A stretch of 64,000 nt of DNA from Candidatus Omnitrophota bacterium. GTDB taxonomy: Bacteria; Omnitrophota; Gorgyraeia; Duberdicusellales; 4484-171. Below, piece by piece: positions 1-55,233 of this stretch (its first letter is position 1; each line of letters opens with the position of its first letter). A program made the position numbers and the translations under genes. The DNA lies in the NCBI GenBank assembly GCA_037146775.1, contig JBAWWL010000006.1, positions 15,120 to 79,119 on the forward strand, in the 5' to 3' direction. The notes under the pieces are model-generated. The model saw only the letters and a list, made by a program, of their open reading frames with translations. It did not search any database and had not been told where the DNA came from.

Positions 1-117
1 AAAGCGTTACCTCGCTAATACCTGATTTTCCGGCAATCAAATTTTTCCAGAATTCGTCTTTGCCGATACCTATCGAAGAAACAATACCTAAACCGGTTAC
101 CACCACTCTTTTACTCA
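1..117 (-). CDS. fabF: 3-oxoacyl-ACP synthase II, N-terminal fragment (the gene continues beyond the window start)
   Basis: The reverse complement of 1-117 translates to MSKRVVVTGLGIVSSIGIGKDEFWKNLIAGKSGISEV, a typical KAS II N-terminus; an ATG is at 115-117. Confidence 0.6.
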
Positions 118-137
118 TACGATCACTACCTTACAAA

Positions 138-581
138 TCACAACTTCACTCCAAACACAATCCTTCCCTCCGCCACGACTTCGTCCTTTACCAAGGCTAC
201 TGCTCGCACAATACCGGCGTTTCCAATAATTTTATCTTCATGCACTTGGAGTATCAGCTGGTCACCAACCATAACCGGCTTCAAAAACTTCACTTCTACT
301 TTACCTAAAAAATACGTAGGTTTCTTTGCGGCAATTTCCGGCTTCAAGGCAGCAAAACCTATAATACTGGCCTGAGCCATAGCTTCAATAATAATCACGC
401 CGGGAAGAATAGGCTTATCGGGAAAATGGCCGACAAAAAAGTAATCGTTAATGGTAACGTTTTTAAGGCAGGTAATCTTTTTCTCTTGCGGATTTATATC
501 CAAAACTTTATCGATGAAAAGGAATGGATATTTTTGCGGTAAAACTTCTTGAATTTTCTGAATATCCCAGATGCCCTCCAT
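138..581 (-). CDS. fabZ: 3-hydroxyacyl-ACP dehydratase FabZ
   Basis: 147 aa with a hot-dog fold and the HFPDKPILPGVIIIEAMAQ active-site region; located between fabG and fabF. Confidence 0.85.
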   Translation of the reverse strand: MEGIWDIQKIQEVLPQKYPFLFIDKVLDINPQEKKITCLKNVTINDYFFVGHFPDKPILPGVIIIEAMAQASIIGFAALKPEIAAKKPTYFLGKVEVKFLKPVMVGDQLILQVHEDKIIGNAGIVRAVALVKDEVVAEGRIVFGVKL

Positions 582-679
582 ATTATTTGTTTAAAAGTTT
601 TTCTGCCATATTGATATTGTTAAAACACCATGCTATTAATGATACTGATAAATTGTTTATTCTTTATCTAAATGCGCAC

Positions 680-1426
680 CTATATCGCCAAACCTCCGTC
701 AATCTTTATAGTTTCTCCGGTAATATAGCTTGCCTGATCCGAAGCAAGAAACACGCACAAGTACGCCACTTCATTCGCTTCGCCCAAACGTTTCTGTGGT
801 ATACTGTTTATAATTTCTTTTTTAAAATCATCCCGCAAACCGCTCACCATATCCGTGTTGATAAAACCCGGACACACCACATTTACCCTCACGCCATACG
901 CAGCCACCTCTTTCGCCAAAGCCTTGGAAAATCCGATAATTCCTGCCTTAGAGGCGCTATAATTAGTCTGGCGCGGTAAACCGGTAATACCACTCACTGA
1001 ACTCATGTTTACGATGCATCCTTTTTTTTGTTTCAAAAAAGTAGTTATAGCCGCTCGGGTCATATTAAAAGTTCCGCCTAAATTGGTATCTACAACTTCT
1101 TTCCAGTCATCCATAGTCATCATCATCAACGCCTTATCTTTAGTTATGCCGGCATTATTCACTAAAATATCCAGATGAGAGAACTGGGCTAAAGCCTTCT
1201 CTACCACCTGGCGGCACTGATTGTAATCTTTAATGTCTGTTTTAATACCGCTACCGCTGGTACCCAACGCCTTAATTTCTTCCTCTAATTTTTTTGCTTC
1301 GGCTTCGCTCTTGTTGTAAGTAAAGACAATCTGCGCTCCGGCCTTAGCAAATTCCAAGCAGCACGCACGCCCGATTCCTCGCGCACCGCCGGTAATGATT
1401 GCGATTTTACCTTTTAAATCAGCCAT
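680..1426 (-). CDS. fabG: 3-oxoacyl-ACP reductase FabG (SDR family)
   Basis: 248 aa; TGGARGIGR Rossmann motif, NNAG and YxxxK SDR motifs; stop codon is TAG. Confidence 0.85.
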   Translation of the reverse strand: MADLKGKIAIITGGARGIGRACCLEFAKAGAQIVFTYNKSEAEAKKLEEEIKALGTSGSGIKTDIKDYNQCRQVVEKALAQFSHLDILVNNAGITKDKALMMMTMDDWKEVVDTNLGGTFNMTRAAITTFLKQKKGCIVNMSSVSGITGLPRQTNYSASKAGIIGFSKALAKEVAAYGVRVNVVCPGFINTDMVSGLRDDFKKEIINSIPQKRLGEANEVAYLCVFLASDQASYITGETIKIDGGLAI

Positions 1427-1494
1427 AGCTTATAATAACATAATTTATCTAGGTTACAATACTACTTCTGGCCAAAACCTGCCAAACCGCTCGC

Positions 1495-2736
1495 TTAGTT
1501 TTTATCAATGTATTTTTCCAATACGCACGCGCTGTTGTAACCACCCGGGCCGAAAGAAACCACCAATGCCAGCTTAACATCTTTCTTTTGTGCCTTATTG
1601 GGCACACAATCGATATCGCACTCCGGATCTTTTTCGCCCTGATGTATGGTCGGCGGAACAATTCCATGCTCGAATGCCCCGATGCAGGAAGCAATCTGCA
1701 GGGCTCCTGACGCTGAGAGAGTTTCTGCGGTCATTGATTTTATAGCACTTACCGGAATAGCCTCTAAGGCTTTGCCGAAAATACGCTTTAAAACCTTCAC
1801 CTCGATTTTGTCTAAATCCAGGGATGAATTCGCGCAGCTGGAAATATAATCGATATCTTTCAATCCTACCCCGGCCTCATCCAGCGCTGCCCGGATTGAC
1901 TTCTCGATACCTTCCCCTTGAGAATGTATTCTTCCAATCTTGACACCGTCGAAGCAACTTGCGACGCTACGCACCCTTGCAAAAATAGAAGCTCCTCTTG
2001 AATATGCGGTTTCCCGGTTTTCCAGACAAAACATACCGGCAGCCTCTCCCAAAATCGGCCCATTTCTGCGTTTATCGAAAGGACAGCTTAAGGCTGCGCC
2101 CTTAATCCCAGCCATATATCCCACTTTATGAAAACCAAAGAATAAGCTAAGATCAAGGGCCTCTACCGCTCCGACAAGCGCTATCTTGGCTTTGCCGGTA
2201 GACAAAACCGTAAGAGCGTACCGTAAGGCTTCCAATCCTGCGGTATATCCGGTAGCAAGAGAAACATTAAATCCCTGAATATTAAAACGGATAGAAACCT
2301 GAGATGACGCAGCGTTAAGAACGGTTGAAGGAAAAAGCGCCGGATTAGAAAACTCAAGGCCATCCTTGATCACTTCCCTGTCAAACTTGATCATCGCCCA
2401 AAGGTGAGGAAAAGTCGTACCAGTACTCACGCCAATATCGTCGGTATTTGCTTCGGTAATCTCTAATTTTGCTTCGTCCAATACCTGCTTGGCAGCGCAC
2501 ATCAAGAAAAGCCCGCTTCTATCTATGTTGCGTAAACCTTTTGGCCCAAGATATATTTTTGGATCAAAATTTTTGAGTTCCGCAGCCACGTTGACCGAGA
2601 ACTTTTCGGTAGGAAAAGATTCGATTTTTGAGACAGAGCTCACACCTTCTTCTATGCTTTTCCAGAAAAGCTCTTTACCTATACCATTAGGGCTCACCAC
2701 CCCGATACCAGTGATAAAGAATTCTTTATTTTGCAT
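1495..2736 (-). CDS. Ketosynthase (FabF/FabB)-like protein lacking the Cys-His-His catalytic triad
   Basis: Thiolase-fold KAS homologue. The active-site region reads SLATGYTAG where TACTSG is expected (no Cys), and the His motifs read SSCANSS and KSMTAETL (no His). Start is probably the MQNKEFFITGIG methionine; the maximal ORF runs to 2799. Confidence 0.7.
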   Translation of the reverse strand: MQNKEFFITGIGVVSPNGIGKELFWKSIEEGVSSVSKIESFPTEKFSVNVAAELKNFDPKIYLGPKGLRNIDRSGLFLMCAAKQVLDEAKLEITEANTDDIGVSTGTTFPHLWAMIKFDREVIKDGLEFSNPALFPSTVLNAASSQVSIRFNIQGFNVSLATGYTAGLEALRYALTVLSTGKAKIALVGAVEALDLSLFFGFHKVGYMAGIKGAALSCPFDKRRNGPILGEAAGMFCLENRETAYSRGASIFARVRSVASCFDGVKIGRIHSQGEGIEKSIRAALDEAGVGLKDIDYISSCANSSLDLDKIEVKVLKRIFGKALEAIPVSAIKSMTAETLSASGALQIASCIGAFEHGIVPPTIHQGEKDPECDIDCVPNKAQKKDVKLALVVSFGPGGYNSACVLEKYIDKN

Positions 2737-2932
2737 CTTTATTATTGTAACTGAAATATTAATTTTGTAAACCCCATCATTGCATCGGGTTGGGCACATA
2801 TAAAGAAGGAACTGTCGCCTTTTAAACTCCGGAAACCGCTACCAGGCAAATAAACATTATGAAAACGCTTTCAGGATACACCCTCTATACCCTTGCAGCA
2901 CTGTAAAGAAAAATGTTATCTTTTCAATGAGG

Positions 2933-2993
2933 GCTCTCTTCGGAGAGCTAAAGCCACGGACCCTCTCCCTATCAAGGGGGAGGGGTTTTTTTT
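2933..2993 (+). terminator. Orphan intrinsic terminator or small-RNA 3' end
   Basis: Hairpin GCUCUC-UUCG-GAGAGC at 2933-2948 with a UUCG tetraloop, then a 9-bp stem CCCTCTCCC / GGGGGAGGG with loop TATCAA at 2961-2984, then T8 at 2986-2993. No plus-strand gene lies upstream. Confidence 0.5.
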
Positions 2994-3202
2994 ATAGAAA
3001 ACTAAGCCTGATAAGGGTTTATGGCAGGCCGAAACTGTACGGCATTGGAACCGCAATTATCGCTTTTCTAAAGGCAAACAGAATCAGGACATATTACCCA
3101 AAGACATAGGATACGGGAGGATTAATAAACCGCTACTAAACCGGTATTTTAAAGGACCGGAATATCGCATATAGCTGCCAGGGAAATAAAACAAAAAATG
3201 CT

Positions 3203-4975
3203 TTAAACTTGAAATAACTTACGCAGATGTTCGGCTTTCAACTCTCTTAAAGCCTGACGAATCAATTTTTTGTTGGAGGGATTTTTGTATTGAATAAGCG
3301 CGCGCTGCATTTGTCTTTCCCGAAACGTTTTTGCCGTATACACTAGCTGCCCGGTAAAAGGATCCTTGCCGGTATAATACATACAGCCGGCAAGAGTCAT
3401 CGGCAAAGGAATAAAATCCTGGATTTGTTCAGGATAAATATGGCGCCGTATAAGATAAAGACCAAGCTTAAGCGCATCCTCTAAGCGCGCGCCCGGATGT
3501 GCGACAATGAAGTATCTTACCAAATAAAGCTCTTTTTTGACTTTAGCGTTCATTTTACCGAAAGCAGCGGCAAACCGTTCGTACGAGCCGCTATCGGATT
3601 TATTCATTACCTTTAGCACACTGTCCACCGCATGTTCCGGGGCAACCTTCATTTGACCACTGATATGAAACCTACACAGCTCTTCGAGATAGTTTTCGGC
3701 AGACTGGTCGGCCAGCAAATCATAACGGAAACCGCTGCCGACAAAAAGATGTTTTACTTTTGGAATTTGACGAATCATTCTGTAAAGAGCTGTGGTTTGC
3801 TGATAGCCAAGATTAAGATCTTTGCATTTTGTGGGCAAGAGACAATTCTTATTTTCGCAAAAACCTCGTTTTCCCCATACATTACAGCTTGCCCGGTACA
3901 GATTGGCGGTAGGACCGCCGATATCGCTGATAGTGCCCTTAAAGTCGCTTTGCTCGGCAAGTATTCTTGCTTCCTTCACAATCGAAGCGGGACTTCTGCT
4001 TTGTACGATCCTGCCCTGATGGAAATAAAGCGAGCAAAAGCTGCATTCGCCGCAACAGCCGCGGTGAGAAATAATCGAAAATTTAACCGTTTCAAACCCC
4101 TTCAAACCGCCGGCCGCAGCATAAACCGGATGACACTTACGGCTGTACGGCAATTCATAAATTTTATCCAGCTGTTCTGCCTCAAGCGGCAGCGCCGGTG
4201 GCTGCTGGATAACAAATCTGTCAGCGTGGCGCTGCGCAACTTTCTTTGCCGCAAAAGGATTCATCTCCCGATAGATCATCTTAAATGCTTGATTGAATTT
4301 TTCTTTGTCGGCCTTGATGTCTTCAAAGGAAGGAATTTCCACACAATCGGATAGTTTTTCAACCTCTTTTCCGATAGTAACCGTTCCCCGGATCGAGGCC
4401 ATAGCAATATCCCGGCCTCCCTCAAGATATCGAGCAATTTCCACCACCTGCGTCTCTGCCATGCCATAAGCAAGAATATCCGCTTTGGCGTCAACCAAAA
4501 GAGAACGCCTGATACAATCATCCCAATAATCATAATGAGCGAGCCGACGCAAACTCGCCTCGATACCGCCCAAAACTATCGTAATGTCACCAAAAGCTTC
4601 TCTGACTCTGTTAGCGTACACAAGTATTGCCCGGTCAGGCCGCAATCCGGCTCTGCCACCGGGAGAATAATCATCGCCATGCCGTAATTTTTTGTTGGCA
4701 GTATAGTTGGCAACCATAGAATCGGTATTACCGGAAGTGATACCGAAGAATAAACGCGGCCGGCCTAAACGCGCAAAATCATCCTTACTGCGCCAGTTAG
4801 GCTGGCTGATAATTCCCACCTTATACCCTTCCCTCTCCAAGACACGGCTGATGACCGCAGTACCGTAAGAAGGGTGATCAACGTACGCGTCGCCGGTGAT
4901 CAGAATGATATCCAGTTCTTTCCATCCTCTTTTCTTTATGTCTTGGGCCGAGATAGGTAAAAAATTATCGCGCAT
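3203..4975 (-). CDS. ygiQ: YgiQ-family radical SAM protein (UPF0313)
   Basis: 590 aa; radical-SAM cysteine cluster HRGCCGECSFCS; conserved YgiQ N-terminal domain (ITGDAYVDHPSYG). Confidence 0.8.
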   Translation of the reverse strand: MRDNFLPISAQDIKKRGWKELDIILITGDAYVDHPSYGTAVISRVLEREGYKVGIISQPNWRSKDDFARLGRPRLFFGITSGNTDSMVANYTANKKLRHGDDYSPGGRAGLRPDRAILVYANRVREAFGDITIVLGGIEASLRRLAHYDYWDDCIRRSLLVDAKADILAYGMAETQVVEIARYLEGGRDIAMASIRGTVTIGKEVEKLSDCVEIPSFEDIKADKEKFNQAFKMIYREMNPFAAKKVAQRHADRFVIQQPPALPLEAEQLDKIYELPYSRKCHPVYAAAGGLKGFETVKFSIISHRGCCGECSFCSLYFHQGRIVQSRSPASIVKEARILAEQSDFKGTISDIGGPTANLYRASCNVWGKRGFCENKNCLLPTKCKDLNLGYQQTTALYRMIRQIPKVKHLFVGSGFRYDLLADQSAENYLEELCRFHISGQMKVAPEHAVDSVLKVMNKSDSGSYERFAAAFGKMNAKVKKELYLVRYFIVAHPGARLEDALKLGLYLIRRHIYPEQIQDFIPLPMTLAGCMYYTGKDPFTGQLVYTAKTFRERQMQRALIQYKNPSNKKLIRQALRELKAEHLRKLFQV

Positions 4976-8832: not shown

Positions 8833-9219
8833 ATGTATTCCAGTATATTTTTTCTTTTAGGGCTCATAGCGCTGGCGGATGTTTTTGACACCACGAGAGA
8901 GCTCTGCCTTAAATCAGCGATAAATTCCTTAGACGGCTATTCCCCCAATACCATCAAGAAGGTGTTACAGTTTGTCTGGACACTTGTTCGTCTACCGAAG
9001 GTATGGATAAGTTTTCTGTGCAGCGTCCTTTCTCTTTTTCTTTATCTCTTCGTCCTATCCAAAGCTGACTTAAGCGTTGCCTTCGCCCTTGACAGCATGC
9101 ATTATATATTTATTGCTTTTGCCGCTAAATGGGTGCTGAAAGAAAAATTCGGCGTTATGCGCTGGATGGGAACAATTTGTGTAGCGATCGGTATAACGCT
9201 GGTAAGCTTCAGCCACTAA
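8833..9219 (+). CDS. Small 4-TM EamA/SMR-like membrane protein, ArnF-like flippase subunit
   Basis: 128 aa hydrophobic protein forming a tandem pair with the preceding ORF; divergent from the DegT gene. Confidence 0.5.
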   Translation: MYSSIFFLLGLIALADVFDTTRELCLKSAINSLDGYSPNTIKKVLQFVWTLVRLPKVWISFLCSVLSLFLYLFVLSKADLSVAFALDSMHYIFIAFAAKWVLKEKFGVMRWMGTICVAIGITLVSFSH

Positions 9220-10733
9220 TGAAGTTCTGATTTCAGAAATTCTAACGCTAAATCAGCCGCATCAAGGCCGGAAAGAAAACAGGCGTGCACGCCGGCACCG
9301 GGACGCGTCCAGGCTCCTGTCAAAAAAAGCCCTTCCACTTTTGTTTCTTGACTTAAACGATTAATGCCCGACTGTTTAACGGTTTGCGCAAAACCATAAA
9401 TTGTTCCTTGCGGCGATAAGGTAAAACGCTCCATGGTACGCGGAGTAGCTATTTCTTTTATTTCGATAGAGCCGGAAAGACCGGGAAGGTAACGTTCGGC
9501 ACGCCTAATGAGAATATCCGCCAAAACAAGTTTTTTCTTTGCATATTCCTCACCGCCCAAGCTCCTCCATCTTTCATAAGTATCGAAGACAATAATTGAA
9601 AGCGTGCCTTTACCCTCGGGGGCAAGGCTTGCATCGAGCTGCGAATGATCCACCATTTCGAAAGGACAATGTTCAAAGTCCTGTTGTGCATAGTAGCTGA
9701 AGTTCTTGTCGTGATCGTAGGTTTCGTTAACGGAAAACATGAAATGATCCATTCCTAATTTTTTCGCGGAAACCTTCAGCCCCAGATACACCTGGAACGC
9801 GGATGTCGATTTTTCCAGCGAAGACAATTTCTTGCGATATCCATTTTTTACCGTATCATCGTCAAGAAGCTCGGTAAGCGTACTTGTGGCGTTCGCGTTG
9901 GAAATAATTGTTTTCGCCGTAAACGTTTCCCCCTTGTCAGTGAGCACCGCACTCACTCTTTTACCTTGTTGAGTAATTATTCTGGTAACGGTCGTATTGT
10001 AGCGTACTTCCGAGCCCTGCTCTCTGATTTTTGCAACCATCGCCTCGAACAATTTACCAACACCCCCTTTTATATAAGCTGTTTTCTCAAAATAATAGCC
10101 GCGAAAACCTAACAAGAAATAAAGTGCAGATAATCTGCTGGGCGCAAGGCCAAAGAAATACCAAAGATTGGCAATAATGCTTCTGAGCTTTTCATCCTGA
10201 ATATGCCTCGCCAGGAACTGGCCCGTAGTTAACCGGGCAACCCGTATAACCTTCAAAGAACGAATCAAAGCAGCCACACATTGCATCCACGAAGTAAATT
10301 GAGATGCGGTAAACCTGTCAAATTGGGCGAAGAATACATCCAGCTCATGGAAAAGTCTGTCGAGATTCTTTATTTCCCGGGGAAAACTGTTTTTGAGGAA
10401 TTCTACAAGGTGTTCGCGGTTAAAATCAACGACAAAGTCGTGCCCAGGATAAATAATACGCAAGAAATCTTTCAATACGATAAAATCTACTGTTTTATCA
10501 ACCCCTGTCTATTCTAAAAAATTTCTTATTTCGCTGCCCGGACAAAGACCATCAACGCAGTGCACCGAAGCCTCAAAAGTAAAACCTTTGCGTTTGAAAG
10601 TAGTAGCAAAACCGCCGGCGAGCGGCTGATGTTCCAAAACCAGAACCCGCTTCCCTTGATCCGAAAGTTCAAGCGCTGCGCTCAAACCGCCAACCCCTGC
10701 GCCGATTACGATAGCATCATATTGCTGCATCAT
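9216..10733 (-). pseudogene. Phytoene-desaturase (CrtI)-family FAD/NAD(P) oxidoreductase interrupted by a single in-frame TAG at 10509-10511
   Basis: N-terminal Rossmann motif YDAIVIGAGVGGLSAA is in the 74-aa ORF (10509-10733). The rest of the protein (9216-10475) is in the same frame. Read-through gives ...EIRNFLE*TGVDKTVDFIVLKDFLRIIYPG... Confidence 0.6.
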
Positions 10734-12828: not shown

Positions 12829-13788
12829 TTAACTCGCTAAAACAGATTGAAGGATTTTTAGGTTGGTAATTTCGTTAAGTGCATTAATACGCTCAAGATC
12901 TTGCGCTAAAAAAGTATTTTTTGGATGATCAAAGAAAGAAATAACGCGTTTAACCAAACTTCTCAGGTAAATCGATGAATATTCTCCGGTAATATCCATT
13001 CCCGCTACATTTTTTTTGCTTTTTAAAATACCGATGGCCGCCAGCAACCAGTCAAGCGGTATAGATCCTTCTTCCCAATTAGTTACCGCGTGAGCTCTCG
13101 TGAGGCAATCTTTGTCGATACTGATATAAATATCATCCGTAGGAATACGGGCCGCCAATTCTTCGAGGAAAGATTCGATACTTTTTTCCGCGAGGTTTTG
13201 CCACTGTATTGTGGAACAAAAATATCCTTTTTTTGTATTGAGACAGCTGACACCATCCAGGGGCCGCAAAAAAACTTTTGCTGGCGGCCGGCTATAGGGG
13301 AAAATCTCGACTTTTCGATTTCTCAAGCCGCAAAAAGACGCGGTCAAAAGACCACGGGTCGACAGATCTTCGCATGACGGTCCAAGCAAAATAACTTTTT
13401 TTACGTTTTCACGGGCAGCTACGGTATTTACCCATGAACCACAGCTTAACTGCGGCGGAAGACCGTCCCAGTCCGGATGATGGTCGAAAACGACAAGGCT
13501 GATCGGCTGAGCAAACTGCGCAAGCAACGCAATAGAAATATGATGAAAATCTCCGGAGCCATACAGAGTAGTGATATTTCTTTCCTGGGGAGATAATTTA
13601 TGTTGCAGACGTTCCAGGCCTTTCCTGTCGGCCCAATAACGCAGGTAAGGAGCTTCAGAGGTACAGTCAACAATCTTTGTGAGAAATGGCGGTACCGAAA
13701 AATCTCTAAGCAGGTTTCGCTGCTTAAGGATGCTGTCGTCAAAATTGAGAATACGGATCTTATTGCGACAAAGTGCTAATGGTGCCAT
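12829..13788 (-). CDS. Arginase/agmatinase/formiminoglutamase-fold metallohydrolase
   Basis: Metal-binding motifs of the ureohydrolase fold: SGDFHHIS, FDHHPDWDG, SIDKDCL. Confidence 0.6.
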   Translation of the reverse strand: MAPLALCRNKIRILNFDDSILKQRNLLRDFSVPPFLTKIVDCTSEAPYLRYWADRKGLERLQHKLSPQERNITTLYGSGDFHHISIALLAQFAQPISLVVFDHHPDWDGLPPQLSCGSWVNTVAARENVKKVILLGPSCEDLSTRGLLTASFCGLRNRKVEIFPYSRPPAKVFLRPLDGVSCLNTKKGYFCSTIQWQNLAEKSIESFLEELAARIPTDDIYISIDKDCLTRAHAVTNWEEGSIPLDWLLAAIGILKSKKNVAGMDITGEYSSIYLRSLVKRVISFFDHPKNTFLAQDLERINALNEITNLKILQSVLAS

Positions 13789-15191
13789 TAAGGCTGTTTT
13801 TTAAGCGCAAGCGTAAGCGCCTCCTCAAAAAGCTCAACTGCCAAGTCCATTTCGCGTTCTGTTATATAAAGAGAGGGCGCGAGAGTAAAAGTATTCTTAT
13901 AGTATCCTCCGACATCCAAAATTAATCCGCGGCGGCTGCCTCCGGCGGATAATTTACCGCTTAAACCAATCTCGCAAATCTTGTCAGTAAGTGCCTTGCT
14001 GGGAGTAAAACCGTCTTTCTCGCACATCTCAATCCGGATTGCCAGCCCTAATCCATTTACGTCACCAATCTGAGGATATTTTTTTTGCAAAGCTTTCAGG
14101 CGCCTAAGAAGATACTTTCCCTTTTCGTTCACTGATGTCTCAAAGTCAGACTCCTCTATGATATTCAAGGTTTCTAGGCCAACGGCAGTACCTAAGGTGT
14201 TCGAGGAGAATGTCGAGTGAGTCGATCCGGGAGGAAATACGTCAGGCGAAATCAATTCTTCCTTAGCCCAGACGCCGCTTAGAGGATTCAGTCCGTTAGT
14301 AAGAGCTTTGCCAAAAACAATAATATCGGGAACGACATCAAAGTTCTCAATAGCCCAGAATTTTCCTGTCCGGTAAAAACCCATCTGTATCTCATCGTCT
14401 ACCAGAAATATATGGTAACGATCGAAAATTTTTTTCATTTCCTTAAAATACTCTTGGGGCGGAATAATATACCCGCCGGTACCCTGCACCGCTTCCACGT
14501 AAAATGCCACAAATTCGCTTTCGTCAACCTTGGAATCATATACCGAATAATATTCGGTTTCAAAAAGTTTTTCGAATTGCTTTACGCAATACAAATCGCA
14601 TTCATCGCGCTCTTTACCATAGAAACACCGGAAACAGTAAGGATACGGAACGAAGAAAGCCCGGTTGGCAAAATGCCCAAAACGGCGGCGGTAGCGATAG
14701 CTGGAAGTAATGGAACTGGCTTCAAGGGTCCTGCCGTGATAACTGCCAAAGAAAGAAAACACCAAGTTCTTGCCTGTAACATTACGGATCAATTTTTGTG
14801 AATCTTCCAACGCCGAGGCTCCGCCGACATTAAAATGGACTCTGCCTTTTGTTTTAAACTTTTTTTCATTGAGCCGGCATAGCTTGGTAGCCAATTCCAC
14901 TTTTTCACGGTGCAAATACTGACAAGCAAGCTGCGGCAATTTATCGATCTGACTCTTTAAAACGTTGTTCAGCCGTTTGTTACCGTAACCGAAATTAGCC
15001 GCGGAATACCACATCTGCAAATCCAGATATTCAACACCTTCTTCGTCGTAAAGATAGATATCTTTTGCCCGTTCGAAGATTTTTGGTTGTTTGGAATAAT
15101 GAACGGTATCGCCCCAGGAACAATACTTCTCTTCCAGCTTCAATAACTCCTGCTGTGATCTCGTCGCAGCTATTTGTTCTTTTACATTCAT
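13788..15191 (-). CDS. Class III PLP-dependent aminotransferase
   Basis: 467 aa; DDEIQMGFYRTGKFWA motif; catalytic Lys region FGKALTNG; glycine-rich GGASALE. Confidence 0.8.
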   Translation of the reverse strand: MNVKEQIAATRSQQELLKLEEKYCSWGDTVHYSKQPKIFERAKDIYLYDEEGVEYLDLQMWYSAANFGYGNKRLNNVLKSQIDKLPQLACQYLHREKVELATKLCRLNEKKFKTKGRVHFNVGGASALEDSQKLIRNVTGKNLVFSFFGSYHGRTLEASSITSSYRYRRRFGHFANRAFFVPYPYCFRCFYGKERDECDLYCVKQFEKLFETEYYSVYDSKVDESEFVAFYVEAVQGTGGYIIPPQEYFKEMKKIFDRYHIFLVDDEIQMGFYRTGKFWAIENFDVVPDIIVFGKALTNGLNPLSGVWAKEELISPDVFPPGSTHSTFSSNTLGTAVGLETLNIIEESDFETSVNEKGKYLLRRLKALQKKYPQIGDVNGLGLAIRIEMCEKDGFTPSKALTDKICEIGLSGKLSAGGSRRGLILDVGGYYKNTFTLAPSLYITEREMDLAVELFEEALTLALKKQP

Positions 15192-51983: not shown

Positions 51984-53321
51984 CTAAATTAAAGAAAGAT
52001 ATTCCTTCCCTTCCAGGAAAGGGTTTAAGGAGCGCTCGATTTTATAGCCGGGCTTTTTCTCGCTTAAATTAAGTATTCCTTTTTTCTCTGAAGGGACTAG
52101 CACTTCTACGGTAGGAAAAAATATATCTTCCGCATTCTCTTCTCTGACTACGGCAATATAACCGTCCTCAAGAACCACGATAGTACCTCTCGGCCACACC
52201 CCCATTATCTTGAAAAATTTTTCCAAAAGAAAAGGATCAAACGCCCCGGCACTTTCCCGCATCATTAAATCATAAATCATCCGTGGCGGATAATCTCTCT
52301 TGTACGTTCTACGTTGCATCAGCGCATCATACACGTCACAGATCGAAACCAGCAAAGAAATAATATGAGGCTTTTGCTTAAAAGAAAGCTTCGGATACCC
52401 TTTCATATCGTAGCGTAAGTGATGTTCAAACGCCACGACCGCCGGCAACATTCCCAGCGTATCCACATATTGCAAGAGCATCTCGGCCCCCTGGATCGTG
52501 TGACTTTGTATAGTCAAAAATTCTTCGCTCGACAGTTTATCCGGCTTGGTAATAATACGCTTCGATATGTAAATCTTACCGATATCGTGGAATAATGCGG
52601 CAATGCCGACATCCAACATATCATCCTTTGAAAGCCCAAGCATCGCAGCAAAATTCATAGACAGAATCGAAACATTTAAAAGATGCGTAAACGTCGAAAC
52701 ATCATATTTTTTAATCCCTGCAAGTTTAGCAAACTCTTCATAATTACCCACGAGATTATCTACCACCATCATCATGGTAAACTTAAGCCCTACTCCATCC
52801 ACCTCTTTGTTGTCAAGCAGCACATCGACAAACTGAGAAGTCCGCTCTAACGAATTATCATAATAGTCTTGATAACCCGTCGGCTGCACCGCAACGGCTT
52901 CGGACGAAGAAAGCCCGAGTTTACTCACCAGAACATTTCGAATGCCCTGCACAGAAAAATATTCCTGCACATCTTTAGGAGCTTTATCGCGGGTTAACGC
53001 AAGATATTCCACAAATTTTGCTAATTCATCTCTGGACAGGCCACGGTGAAAAATAATTTTTTCTATTCCCCGCTCTTTGAATAAAGAAATAATTAATTTT
53101 GCTTTTTTGCTCAACTCAAAGAAAATTTCTTTTTCAAAAATAAGCTCATCCCCGACCACCCCTATCACCAGTTCTTCTTTTTCGTCTAAGAGTGCGACAA
53201 GACTGGCGTAATTTTTATCAAGAAATTCCATGAATTTAGGATGCGCGGTAGTATAAATCTTAGCTATCTGGAACAAAGACAACAAATCCTTTAAAAAACA
53301 CTCAATCCTTTCGCGCATCAA
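51984..53321 (-). CDS. HD-GYP phosphodiesterase with an N-terminal DUF3391-like domain
   Basis: HDIGKIYISKRIIT and HHLRYDMKGYP motifs; the N-terminal ~120 aa are paralogous to the N-terminus of the upstream 643-aa protein. Confidence 0.75.
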   Translation of the reverse strand: MMRERIECFLKDLLSLFQIAKIYTTAHPKFMEFLDKNYASLVALLDEKEELVIGVVGDELIFEKEIFFELSKKAKLIISLFKERGIEKIIFHRGLSRDELAKFVEYLALTRDKAPKDVQEYFSVQGIRNVLVSKLGLSSSEAVAVQPTGYQDYYDNSLERTSQFVDVLLDNKEVDGVGLKFTMMMVVDNLVGNYEEFAKLAGIKKYDVSTFTHLLNVSILSMNFAAMLGLSKDDMLDVGIAALFHDIGKIYISKRIITKPDKLSSEEFLTIQSHTIQGAEMLLQYVDTLGMLPAVVAFEHHLRYDMKGYPKLSFKQKPHIISLLVSICDVYDALMQRRTYKRDYPPRMIYDLMMRESAGAFDPFLLEKFFKIMGVWPRGTIVVLEDGYIAVVREENAEDIFFPTVEVLVPSEKKGILNLSEKKPGYKIERSLNPFLEGKEYLSLI

Positions 53322-55233
53322 GCTCCTCTATTGTCCGCTTAGCCAAAAAACGTAAGCGACGATTCCAAAAGAATCTTCGCTGAGCCAAACGTCTTAAGTA
53401 CTCCTTCGCCTCTCTTAACCCAACATCGCGGACAATCTTAACATTTTCCTCCAAAAACTTATTCCTAAACCACAACTGATCCGAAAAACTAAGCAGCAAC
53501 TCCGCCGCCTTTTGGCGTTGTCCCTGGTCTTTCATAAGAGCAATCACAGCCTGCTTTTTAATTATTACACCGGACTCCTCCAAAAGCGCATATAAGAAAT
53601 CTGCCTCCAGATAAGAAGCCTGCTCGAGTGCCCGTAATATTTCTAACTTCAGAAAACTGTCACACACATAAAAAATATCCTTTAAAAACTTAAAAGAATA
53701 TATATTATCCACTTTGCATACACTCTCGATAAGCTTTTTCATAAAAGCTATATCATCGACTTTTCTTTTGATACGCTGAAAAAGGGCATCAATTTCGTCA
53801 GGAAAAAATTTTAAAAATAACTCGATAATATAAGAGGTATGGGCACTGCCGCTAAATATCTTATCAATATACGTATCGACGCCAATAGTGCTTTTTTGCA
53901 TATAGCCGACAAAAAAGCCGGGATCAAAACCGATATCATCGCTCAACATCGTCTCTTCCGCAAAAGCGCTAATACGTGTTCCTAATTCCTCAAACCCCTG
54001 GAATTGGGCAACATTTTTCTTTTTTATGTCCTCTAAGGCCGTAGCCAATGTGGTAAGATAAGCAAAATCCTTGTCTTTAACGATAGCATCAAACTCTTTT
54101 ATAATACTATTCGCAACGCGCTGCAGTTGCTCTCCTCTTTTTTCTTGTGTAAGTACATTCAACTGCAGAAGCCGGTAATTTTTCGTAACCAGTTGGCGGT
54201 TGAATGAAATGGCGCCATCCTTAAATGACTCTTCCATAAGAGTGGAGAGGTAACGATGGTATAGCTCGGAAAAAAATGGATCGTCCACCTGAGAGAATAC
54301 TTCGACGACCCTTTTGATCATTGCCGGATTAGCGCGTAACTCGGCTTTTACCTTGTCGGTAAACGCAACAGTAAACGCTTGCCGATATTTCTGACCTAAC
54401 AATTTCGAAAAAAGCACTAAGTTAAGAGGGTCGAATCGTTCATTCGCTGCCATCTCACCCCACAATGTGTCAACAAATTCTTTTTCGGTGGCATATTGCA
54501 AAAATGATTTCAATTGCTCAGTCTTACCTGCATCGAGAGATGCGCGGTCTTGCAACACCGTTCGCAGTAACTTTTTGGTACACCGGTACAACCGCTCCCG
54601 ATCGTTTTCCTTAAGATAAGCAAATAGCTGCTCAACATTTTCTCGAACAGTAGCATCGTCAAAAATCTTTGTGCCAGAAGTGGTTATAAACTTCTCAAAA
54701 TGATCGGCGATATCGGTTATCGCGGGTGCGTTTTTCTTTCCAAGCGCTTCCCTCAAGAGATACCCCCACACATCTGTGCATTCCTCGATTCCTCCGGCCT
54801 GCAGCAACTCTGAATAATCGAGCTCCGTCAATCGGATATGCGTAATATTTTCTTTTCCCAGAATAAAAGACAGTCCTCCCCGTTTAAGAATTTCACTCGG
54901 CATAAGAGCAATACTATTTAAAAAAACTATCAGCTCCTCGACGGTAATGCCCTGGCGTATTTCGATAGTCTTTATTTTTCGGCGATGGAACGCATGTGCG
55001 AGATCTTTATAAAGCTGCTCTCCTTCCCAATATTTTTCAGCACAAAAAAGCGAAACGGGGGTGACGCCGACAGTTAAAGGGTCCGATATAGCCAGAAGAA
55101 CGTATATGCTCTCTTCCAGGCTTTCGACAGATTTGATAAAAGCGGGGTGCTCCTTAAAATAAATAGAAGTAGTATTGAAGGCTACGCGTAGCTTTTTGAA
55201 AAAATCTTCGTATAACGTTTCTCTTTCCATCAA
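53302..55233 (-). CDS. Large alpha-helical hypothetical protein occupying the ftsZ position of the dcw cluster
   Basis: 643 aa with no tubulin GGGTGSG signature. Its N-terminus is homologous to the HD-GYP N-domain. The start overlaps the ftsA stop (ATGA) and the end overlaps the HD-GYP gene. Confidence 0.5.
   Translation of the reverse strand: MMERETLYEDFFKKLRVAFNTTSIYFKEHPAFIKSVESLEESIYVLLAISDPLTVGVTPVSLFCAEKYWEGEQLYKDLAHAFHRRKIKTIEIRQGITVEELIVFLNSIALMPSEILKRGGLSFILGKENITHIRLTELDYSELLQAGGIEECTDVWGYLLREALGKKNAPAITDIADHFEKFITTSGTKIFDDATVRENVEQLFAYLKENDRERLYRCTKKLLRTVLQDRASLDAGKTEQLKSFLQYATEKEFVDTLWGEMAANERFDPLNLVLFSKLLGQKYRQAFTVAFTDKVKAELRANPAMIKRVVEVFSQVDDPFFSELYHRYLSTLMEESFKDGAISFNRQLVTKNYRLLQLNVLTQEKRGEQLQRVANSIIKEFDAIVKDKDFAYLTTLATALEDIKKKNVAQFQGFEELGTRISAFAEETMLSDDIGFDPGFFVGYMQKSTIGVDTYIDKIFSGSAHTSYIIELFLKFFPDEIDALFQRIKRKVDDIAFMKKLIESVCKVDNIYSFKFLKDIFYVCDSFLKLEILRALEQASYLEADFLYALLEESGVIIKKQAVIALMKDQGQRQKAAELLLSFSDQLWFRNKFLEENVKIVRDVGLREAKEYLRRLAQRRFFWNRRLRFLAKRTIEELDARKD

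Follow-up and report, generated by a model that had tools for sequence, protein, structure and literature searches.

At one end of a DNA stretch of 64,000 nucleotides from a Candidatus Omnitrophota bacterium (assembly GCA_037146775.1, contig JBAWWL010000006.1, positions 15,120 to 79,119; hereafter the window) lies an operon encoding a ketosynthase (KS) homologue in which the whole Cys-His-His catalytic triad has been replaced. We consider this KS-like protein to be a catalytically dead FabF paralogue that acts as structural partner of the active KS encoded downstream in the same operon, a reading to which we give, by analogy with a pair known from anammox bacteria, a probability of about 70%. 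The operon would belong to a specialised lipid or polyene-type pathway that runs beside ordinary fatty-acid synthesis. Four co-directional minus-strand genes occupy positions 1-2736, in transcription order KS-like, fabG, fabZ and active KS (Table 1), the same four genes that a preliminary description of this DNA had listed. The triad loss reported in that description also stands, whereas its strand and direction and the identities of the residues needed correction: the genes are on the minus strand and the replacing residues are Tyr, Cys and Glu. It had further placed the upstream genes beyond the window edge, which does not hold, as the operon reads from right to left, the edge cuts its downstream end and the upstream side lies inside the window.

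The KS-like protein was aligned with amxFabF2 (PDB 9s5h_B), S. aureus FabF (2gqd) and the downstream KS. The column of the catalytic Cys holds Tyr163 (LATG-Y-TAG), that of the first His Cys301 (ISS-C-ANSS) and that of the second His Glu338 (MTA-E-TLS); the active-site Lys333 is retained and the gate Phe has become Pro. The motifs quoted in the preliminary description (LATGYTAG, SSCANSS and MTAETL) were thus correct, and the misalignment against which it had asked for a check can be dismissed, since alignment to FabFs leaves the catalytic Cys and both His absent. The same columns are replaced throughout the 120 closest homologues (identity 53-100%; most are named as Omnitrophota): the Cys column has Tyr in 102, Phe in 15, Cys in two and Ser in one, the first His column has Cys in 112, Ser in seven and Gly in one, and Glu at the second His column and the Lys are found in all 120. 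Because of this consistency the gene must be under selection and is not decaying. In a wider clade of triad-less sequences the Cys position varies among Tyr, Phe, Met, Val, Gln and Glu and the first His position among Cys, Ser, Asn, Ala, Gly and Thr, and only the Glu and the Lys are constant. Mean pairwise divergence across 44 loci is 0.46 for the KS-like protein and 0.42 for the active KS. At 53-73% identity in more than 120 homologues, the KS-like protein is well conserved; it is a FabF paralogue that has lost the triad yet is under selection, and not a pseudogene, a misalignment, a chance finding or a sequencing artefact.

As the preliminary description had proposed, the protein aligns to FabF and has its fold. 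The AlphaFold model (pLDDT 89.5) superposes on Bacillus subtilis FabF with a TM score of 0.95 and an rmsd of 2.0 A, and FabFs are the top hits of the fold search, whose library ended in April 2026, so that 9s5h is not ranked in it. Length and Pfam domains are likewise those of canonical FabF, but the triad is missing, the gate Phe is replaced, the gene lies outside a fabH-fabD-fabG-acpP-fabF operon, and the score against the NCBIfam FabF equivalog TIGR03150 is 298.6 bits, below the cut-off of 493.75. The low score and the missing triad rule out that the protein is itself a FabF.

The nearest solved relative of the KS-like protein is chain 9s5h_C (E 2e-90, 306 bits, 39% identity). Among other solved structures, active KSs reach at most 230 bits (FabFs 190-223) and the chain-length factor (CLF) of the actinorhodin system (1tqy_B) 134 bits. 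The downstream KS in turn has its best match in the companion chain 9s5h_B (E 1e-128, 433 bits, 51% identity), followed by Iga11 with 339 bits. The FabZ of the window matches 7qv0 and 8ayb best (135-136 bits), and the acyl carrier protein (ACP) encoded in the clusters of relatives has its best matches in 9s5i_E, 7qv0_D and 7auf_A, so that 7qv0 also contributes an ACP chain. From the design of the two entries (a heterodimer, and a heterodimer with ACP), from the active-site residues of 9s5h_C (Val, Asn, Tyr, Gly, Lys, Glu, Arg), which are those listed for Kuste3606 (PMC2649909), and because all partner chains match, we infer that 9s5h, 9s5i and their companion chains are the anammox proteins amxFabFmut, amxFabF2, amxFabZ and amxACP; the code 9s5h itself has no hit in the papers searched.

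A recent preprint (Granatino et al., bioRxiv 10.64898/2026.05.19.726425) reports that amxFabFmut and amxFabF2 co-purify, that they decarboxylate malonyl-ACP and form acetoacetyl-ACP only together, and that they constitute a KS/chain-length-factor-like heterodimer with a single active site; it names amxFabFmut the first chain-length factor of a fatty-acid pathway and describes the cluster as unique to ladderane producers. Both systems consist of a FabF-fold pair of which one member lacks Cys-His-His but keeps the Lys and has Glu at the second His position, a pattern listed also for Kuste3606 (PMC2649909, Table 2), and both dead KSs are structurally nearest to B. subtilis FabF. They differ at the Cys position, which is Tyr or Phe here and Val or Thr in the anammox proteins. 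According to the same source (bioRxiv 10.64898/2026.05.19.726425), Phe135 and Val139 of amxFabFmut line the tunnel, and mutations there shift the chain-length preference. In the KS-like protein F135, T138 and V139 are identical; 21/21, 18/21 and 21/21 family members, respectively, conserve them, and the partner KS varies at these positions. Family alignments show no change at F135 or V139, and together with one other motif this stretch is the most conserved part of the family. Residues 111-140 are the sole low-confidence segment of the model, and the same helix-loop-helix motif is described in the preprint (bioRxiv 10.64898/2026.05.19.726425) as lacking order in crystals of the amxFabFmut homodimer but being ordered in the heterodimer. 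In fold, triad pattern, sequence affinity, tunnel residues and the co-encoded KS of the amxFabF2 clade, the protein agrees with an amxFabFmut-type partner, and it is best filed, on its sequence, in that family of dead KS partners. This is in line with the preliminary description, which had seen in it a CLF-like or otherwise non-catalytic partner subunit and in the fabF at the edge its possible active partner. The full gene of the latter (L001, 12619-13833) encodes 404 amino acids with the Cys-His-His triad intact; the pairing itself is drawn from homology.

The relationships of the two proteins were examined with a neighbour-joining tree of 85 taxa (100 bootstraps), for which the sequences had been gathered with the KS-like query and which contains neither classical CLFs nor ApeC. 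All triad-less sequences, including amxFabFmut and the KS-like family, fall on one side of a single split (88/100), and the partner KSs form a clade with amxFabF2 (100/100). A third KS type with intact triad, found in part of the clusters described below, has a clade of its own (100/100). Branch lengths are ordinary. Sub-clades of KS-like proteins and partner KSs mirror one another, and the pairwise distances of the two correlate with r = 0.90, the highest value of all gene pairs (0.74-0.86 for the others). In a search of 1.84 billion representative sequences the immediate family is one cluster, followed by relatives at 42-44% identity, many of them triad-less FabF-like proteins, and by two-KS proteins of about 800 amino acids. 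Among 41 of these two-KS proteins (about 740-900 amino acids, for example P0123, P0126-P0128 and P0136), 40 join an N-terminal KS with Cys-His-His to a C-terminal triad-less KS, and such fusions lend the pairing Rosetta-stone support of a generic kind.

A scan of species-representative genomes yielded 76 loci (numbered with the prefix L), which were annotated with a custom script based on open reading frames (ORFs) and phmmer. Most belong to Omnitrophota; many are from Nitrospirota/Thermodesulfovibrionia at 44-49% identity, one is from Endomicrobiales and one from Desantisbacteria. The KS-like gene and the partner KS occur together in 58 loci, and counts among these are lower bounds since contigs end. 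At least 54 have FabG, 55 an ACP between FabG and FabZ, 55 FabZ, 35 a CrtI-like amine oxidase, 19 a third KS, 18 a thioester-reductase-like enzyme and 17 a nitroreductase, and a HisKA_7TM kinase lies immediately downstream in at least 41. The genes typically run KS-like, FabG, ACP, FabZ and KS; next comes either a thioester reductase or a third KS, often joined by a CrtI-like oxidase, and last the 7TM histidine kinase. The third KS (about 434 amino acids, for example L004, 14012-15316) has Cys-His-His by alignment and tends to alternate with the thioester reductase.

On the contig that carries an identical KS-like protein, the genes past the window edge are the full partner KS, an NAD-binding reductase of 398 amino acids and, truncated where the contig ends, a 7TM sensor histidine kinase. 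The reductase, directly downstream of the partner KS, matches terminal reductase MxaA and thioester-reductase domains. Some relatives have neither the third KS nor the MxaA-like reductase; in the two examined, L007 (15546-18242) and L027 (13859-16574), an acyl-ACP-reductase/PigE-N-like protein of about 540 amino acids and a WbuX-like PP-loop protein (about 360 amino acids) take that position. That two non-homologous thioester reductases fill one slot suggests that reductive release is a common theme. The kinase is found in Omnitrophota and Thermodesulfovibrionia alike (beyond the edge at L001, 15087-16748, and for example at L004 16751, L005 17033 and L037 15945), and its conservation suggests a functional or regulatory link between a membrane sensor and the lipid cluster.

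Several loci deviate from the usual layout or label. In L007, the cluster of the closest relative, a ParE toxin gene and a gene of the 23S-rRNA-IVP family (12853-13134 and 13735-14064) are inserted among the ACP, FabZ and KS genes; small selfish genes have invaded this operon. In L052 (complete chromosome CP070780.1, 9962-13348) the KS-like gene is accompanied by a 377-aa ORF, FabG and ACP and then by genes on the opposite strand, with fabH-fabD about 6 kb off; the cluster is either split or reduced there. Metagenome-assembled genomes (MAGs) filed as 'uncultured Planctomycetia' (binchicken co-assemblies; L015, L023-L025, L028, L061, L062 and L068) hold an Omnitrophota-type cluster at 40-65% identity, and these labels may be coarse or wrong.

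By homology with amxFabF2/amxFabFmut, the KS-like protein would dimerise with the downstream KS, which would contribute the only active site of the heterodimer, and the helix-loop-helix of the dead subunit would set the chain length. The pair may prime itself by decarboxylating malonyl-ACP, and FabG and FabZ of the operon would reduce and dehydrate each extension. The operon has no enoyl reductase, and the chain would remain unsaturated or be reduced in trans. Through the MxaA-like enzyme of thioester-reductase type just past the window, the product would leave the ACP as an aldehyde or alcohol. The genome of the window has lost its dedicated ACP, and this carrier would have to be borrowed from elsewhere.

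Several observations weigh against a partnership of this kind. The KS-like protein is 39% identical to amxFabFmut and 33% to ordinary FabFs. Its gene is separated from that of the KS by fabG and fabZ, and the two are neither adjacent nor translationally coupled. A crude test for charge asymmetry at the interface is uninformative, as it gave no separation for the anammox control pair either, and the heterodimer is predicted by homology. Although L052 comes from a complete genome, neither a partner KS nor FabZ is found within 10 kb of its KS-like gene. For the anammox heterodimer itself the preprint gives only decarboxylation and acetoacetyl-ACP formation in vitro so far (bioRxiv 10.64898/2026.05.19.726425). 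A single origin of all dead KS partners is not established by the tree, given its query-derived sampling. Finally, the deletion of the ACP and a stop codon in the oxidase, both described below, could mean that the pathway is impaired in this particular genome.

Alternatively, the KS-like protein may have gained a new activity, for instance as a decarboxylase, transacylase or thioesterase, in which Tyr, Cys, Glu and Lys would be used and the protein would act alone. A different catalytic role was first proposed for Kuste3606 by Rattray et al. in 2009 (PMC2649909), and the replacement residues are conserved in the closest family (Tyr or Phe, Cys and Glu, with the Lys kept). The anammox structure has, moreover, a second tunnel leading to the mutated site, but according to the preprint this tunnel has no access to a catalytic triad and the activity of amxFabFmut alone was not detectable (bioRxiv 10.64898/2026.05.19.726425). 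The first two positions also drift across the wider clade, and the constant Glu and Lys would fit a structural salt bridge better than a catalytic centre. We therefore regard an independent activity as unlikely.

The structural-partner reading has to be reconciled with two peculiarities of this genome, which would also be expected if the cluster were here a decaying remnant without product, functional only elsewhere in the family. The first concerns the ACP. A mini-ORF in the spacer between fabG and fabZ, encoding MAEKLLNK and a stop codon, matches in DNA alignment the C-terminus (...IEKLLNK), the stop codon and the fabZ junction of the ACP gene of relatives; tblastn against the C-terminus of the L019 ACP covers 8 amino acids at 75% identity (E 0.1), and a Logan assembly has the same fabG-fabZ spacing. 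No ACP was found in the window with E. coli and B. subtilis ACPs or with a profile of 61 cluster ACPs. Because the mini-ORF matches the 3' end of an ACP gene that relatives carry at the same position, the dedicated gene has been deleted, leaving about eight last codons as a 3' remnant. The second peculiarity is an in-frame TAG at codon 75 of the CrtI-like oxidase gene, where L007, L009 and L010 have Glu or Asp; it is one base from GAG and could mark a pseudogene or an assembly error. Membership of this oxidase in the cluster is uncertain here, and it is possibly associated because the same subtype sits within the cluster in L061 and L063. Many relatives have oxidase and nitroreductase genes downstream of the KS; both are absent here, the reductase being directly followed by the kinase. 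Against decay, the KS-like, FabG, FabZ, KS and reductase genes are all intact ORFs with family-invariant residues, the branch lengths are unexceptional, and a housekeeping ACP could substitute for the lost one. Two other species (L015 and L020) are likewise without ACP but have kept the other genes, so ACP-less versions persist. A remnant without product is thus improbable.

That the operon is the housekeeping fatty-acid synthase of the organism, with the KS/partner pair replacing FabF and FabH, is more improbable still. It would account for the presence of KS, ketoreductase and dehydratase (and of ACP in relatives) and for their spread in the phylum, and a KS/CLF-type pair can prime without FabH. 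The cluster, however, has no FabD, FabH, enoyl reductase or PlsX, and it carries variable tailoring and release genes, including the thioester reductase, that are atypical of housekeeping synthesis. In addition, a canonical operon is present in related Omnitrophota. When the loci were probed with FabD, FabH and FabI of E. coli, fabH-fabD was found near the KS-like cluster in two Omnitrophota loci. In L084 a full yceD-rpmF-plsX-fabH-fabD-fabG-acpP-fabF operon, with FabG, ACP and FabF of its own, lies on the same contig about 5 kb from the KS-like cluster, and L086 has the same canonical operon. FabDs of this type make up more than 120 clusters (65% identity or above), of which every named one is from Omnitrophota; a search with the canonical-type FabF of L006 matches generic FabFs of other phyla at about 50% identity and was uninformative on a phylum-wide housekeeping FabF. 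The 64-kb window contains no other KS, ACP, FabD or FabH, and it is from the relatives that we infer a separate housekeeping synthase in the window's own genome. The distinction between a specialised and a housekeeping pathway that had been made in the preliminary description is thereby borne out. The Omnitrophota literature searched contains nothing on fatty-acid synthesis.

Comparison with other known KS pairs places the system further. As in type II polyketide synthases (PKS; KS-alpha/CLF of actinorhodin, PDB 1tqy), an active KS would be combined with an inactive homologue that shapes the acyl tunnel and supports decarboxylative priming. The similarity to these CLFs is weak, however, the actinorhodin CLF scoring below all FabFs, and they have Gln at the Cys position, which is Tyr here and Tyr or Phe in 117 of the 120 homologues. 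The neighbours are FabG and FabZ, with no cyclase or aromatase genes found, and chains fully processed by ketoreductase and dehydratase would come out reduced, not as poly-beta-ketones. The missing Gln together with the 134 bits to the actinorhodin CLF rules out a classical type II PKS CLF. With the highly reducing type II PKS pairs Iga11/Iga12 (ishigamide, PDB 6kxd) and ApeO/ApeC the operon shares a KS/CLF pair with discrete ketoreductase and dehydratase and without enoyl reductase, although the top matches of the KS-like protein do not include Iga12. The hallmark genes of aryl-polyene clusters (a second ACP, acyltransferases, LolA/MMPL export and aryl starter enzymes) were not seen in the window or in related clusters.

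The context of anammox Cluster I (KustE3603-3608) is the closest, as its ACP, FabZ and CrtI-like oxidase are homologous, and five gene families are common to both clusters. The gene order differs, the KS pair being split here by fabG and fabZ; the present cluster has its own FabG and release enzymes in addition and no B12 radical-SAM gene; it occurs in Omnitrophota and Thermodesulfovibrionia and not in anammox bacteria, and the window's genome has lost the ACP. Across 35 complete clusters no radical-SAM family recurs, and with the ACP also wanting in the window, the locus does not belong to Cluster I or to a ladderane-type cluster in the strict sense. That it makes ladderane lipids, as the five shared families and the antiSMASH 'ladderane' clusters reported in Omnitrophota might suggest, deserves hardly any credence, given the missing radical-SAM gene, the restriction of known ladderanes to anammox Planctomycetota and the as yet unproven part played by Cluster I itself in their synthesis.

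Table 1. Features of the operon and its surroundings (window coordinates)
Feature	Position	Strand	Remarks
KS-like gene	1495..2736	-	413 aa; Pfam ketoacyl-synt N and C domains
Sigma70-like promoter TTTACA-16-TACAAT	2744..2771	-	10/12, consensus match only; directly 5' of ATG at 2736
fabG-type 3-oxoacyl-ACP reductase	680..1426	-	248 aa; TIGR01830 308.8 bits, above cut-off of 297.75; Pfam adh_short_C2
Mini-ORF MAEKLLNK plus stop, remnant of the ACP gene	583..609	-	in the 98-bp fabG-fabZ spacer (582-679)
fabZ-type 3-hydroxyacyl-ACP dehydratase	138..581	-	147 aa; NF000582 144.5 bits, above cut-off of 113
Active partner KS, first 39 codons	1..118	-	cut by window edge
YgiQ-type radical SAM gene (Radical_SAM_N and DUF3362)	3203..4975	-	directly upstream of KS-like gene
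CrtI/phytoene-desaturase-like amine oxidase	9216..10733	-	in-frame TAG 10511-10509

The intergenic gaps from KS-like to fabG, fabZ and KS measure 68, 98 and 19 bp. A longer ORF for the KS-like gene opens at 2799, but the promoter match would fall within it, and this position, together with the family lengths of 407-414 amino acids, argues for the ATG at 2736 as start. The KS-like protein has an identical copy in the NCBI MAG GCA_964613555.1 (Candidatus Omnitrophota) and in one Logan assembly, built from run SRR12676968. The upstream context, for which the preliminary description had suggested a check, consists of a YgiQ-type radical SAM gene and not of ACP or fabH/fabD. Its adjacency to the KS-like gene is kept in the closest relatives only (L007-L010, L047 and L078), and for this reason it probably lies outside the cluster proper; anammox Cluster I also has a radical SAM enzyme, but of a different type. 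The rest of the upstream side within the window includes a PrsW protease, a tRNA methyltransferase, a DegT aminotransferase, two EamA transporters and the CrtI-like amine oxidase. Between ygiQ and the KS-like gene there is a strong GC-rich hairpin with a 10 bp stem (2961-2984), with its T-run on the plus strand though both flanking genes are on the minus strand; an Rfam scan of positions 1-3400 found no element. Elsewhere in the window, an exact-sequence look-up of a 643-aa ORF (53302-55233) gave no matching record.

KS/CLF partnerships are well known in general; no principle is overturned by the present finding, and the closest homologue of the protein has been newly characterised. What is new is the wide occurrence outside anammox bacteria of a 'ladderane-core' cluster, with release enzymes and a linked sensor kinase, which has been undescribed so far. 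The core of KS, dead KS, FabZ and ACP, with a CrtI-like oxidase, is conserved in two non-anammox phyla in a different cluster design and, as the pair matches that of ladderane-making anammox bacteria, the 'ladderane' gene core exists outside them as well. Published surveys list antiSMASH 'ladderane' biosynthetic gene clusters in Omnitrophota and other non-anammox phyla without explanation, and clusters of this kind are plausibly behind such calls. For ladderane research they are a natural set for comparison, with which generic genes can be told from ladderane-specific ones, and they indicate that uncultured lineages have a lipid or polyene product so far uncharacterised. Tentatively, and at less than even odds, the Omnitrophota/Thermodesulfovibrionia cluster may be a non-ladderane sister of anammox Cluster I whose final step is reductive release. 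The Cluster I core would in that case be an older module for an acyl chain of defined length, possibly unsaturated, that leaves as aldehyde or alcohol, and would not be specific to ladderanes; the chemistry peculiar to ladderanes would then depend on the radical-SAM step, and the reduced lipids made by these phyla would form an undescribed class, controlled by a conserved 7TM histidine kinase.

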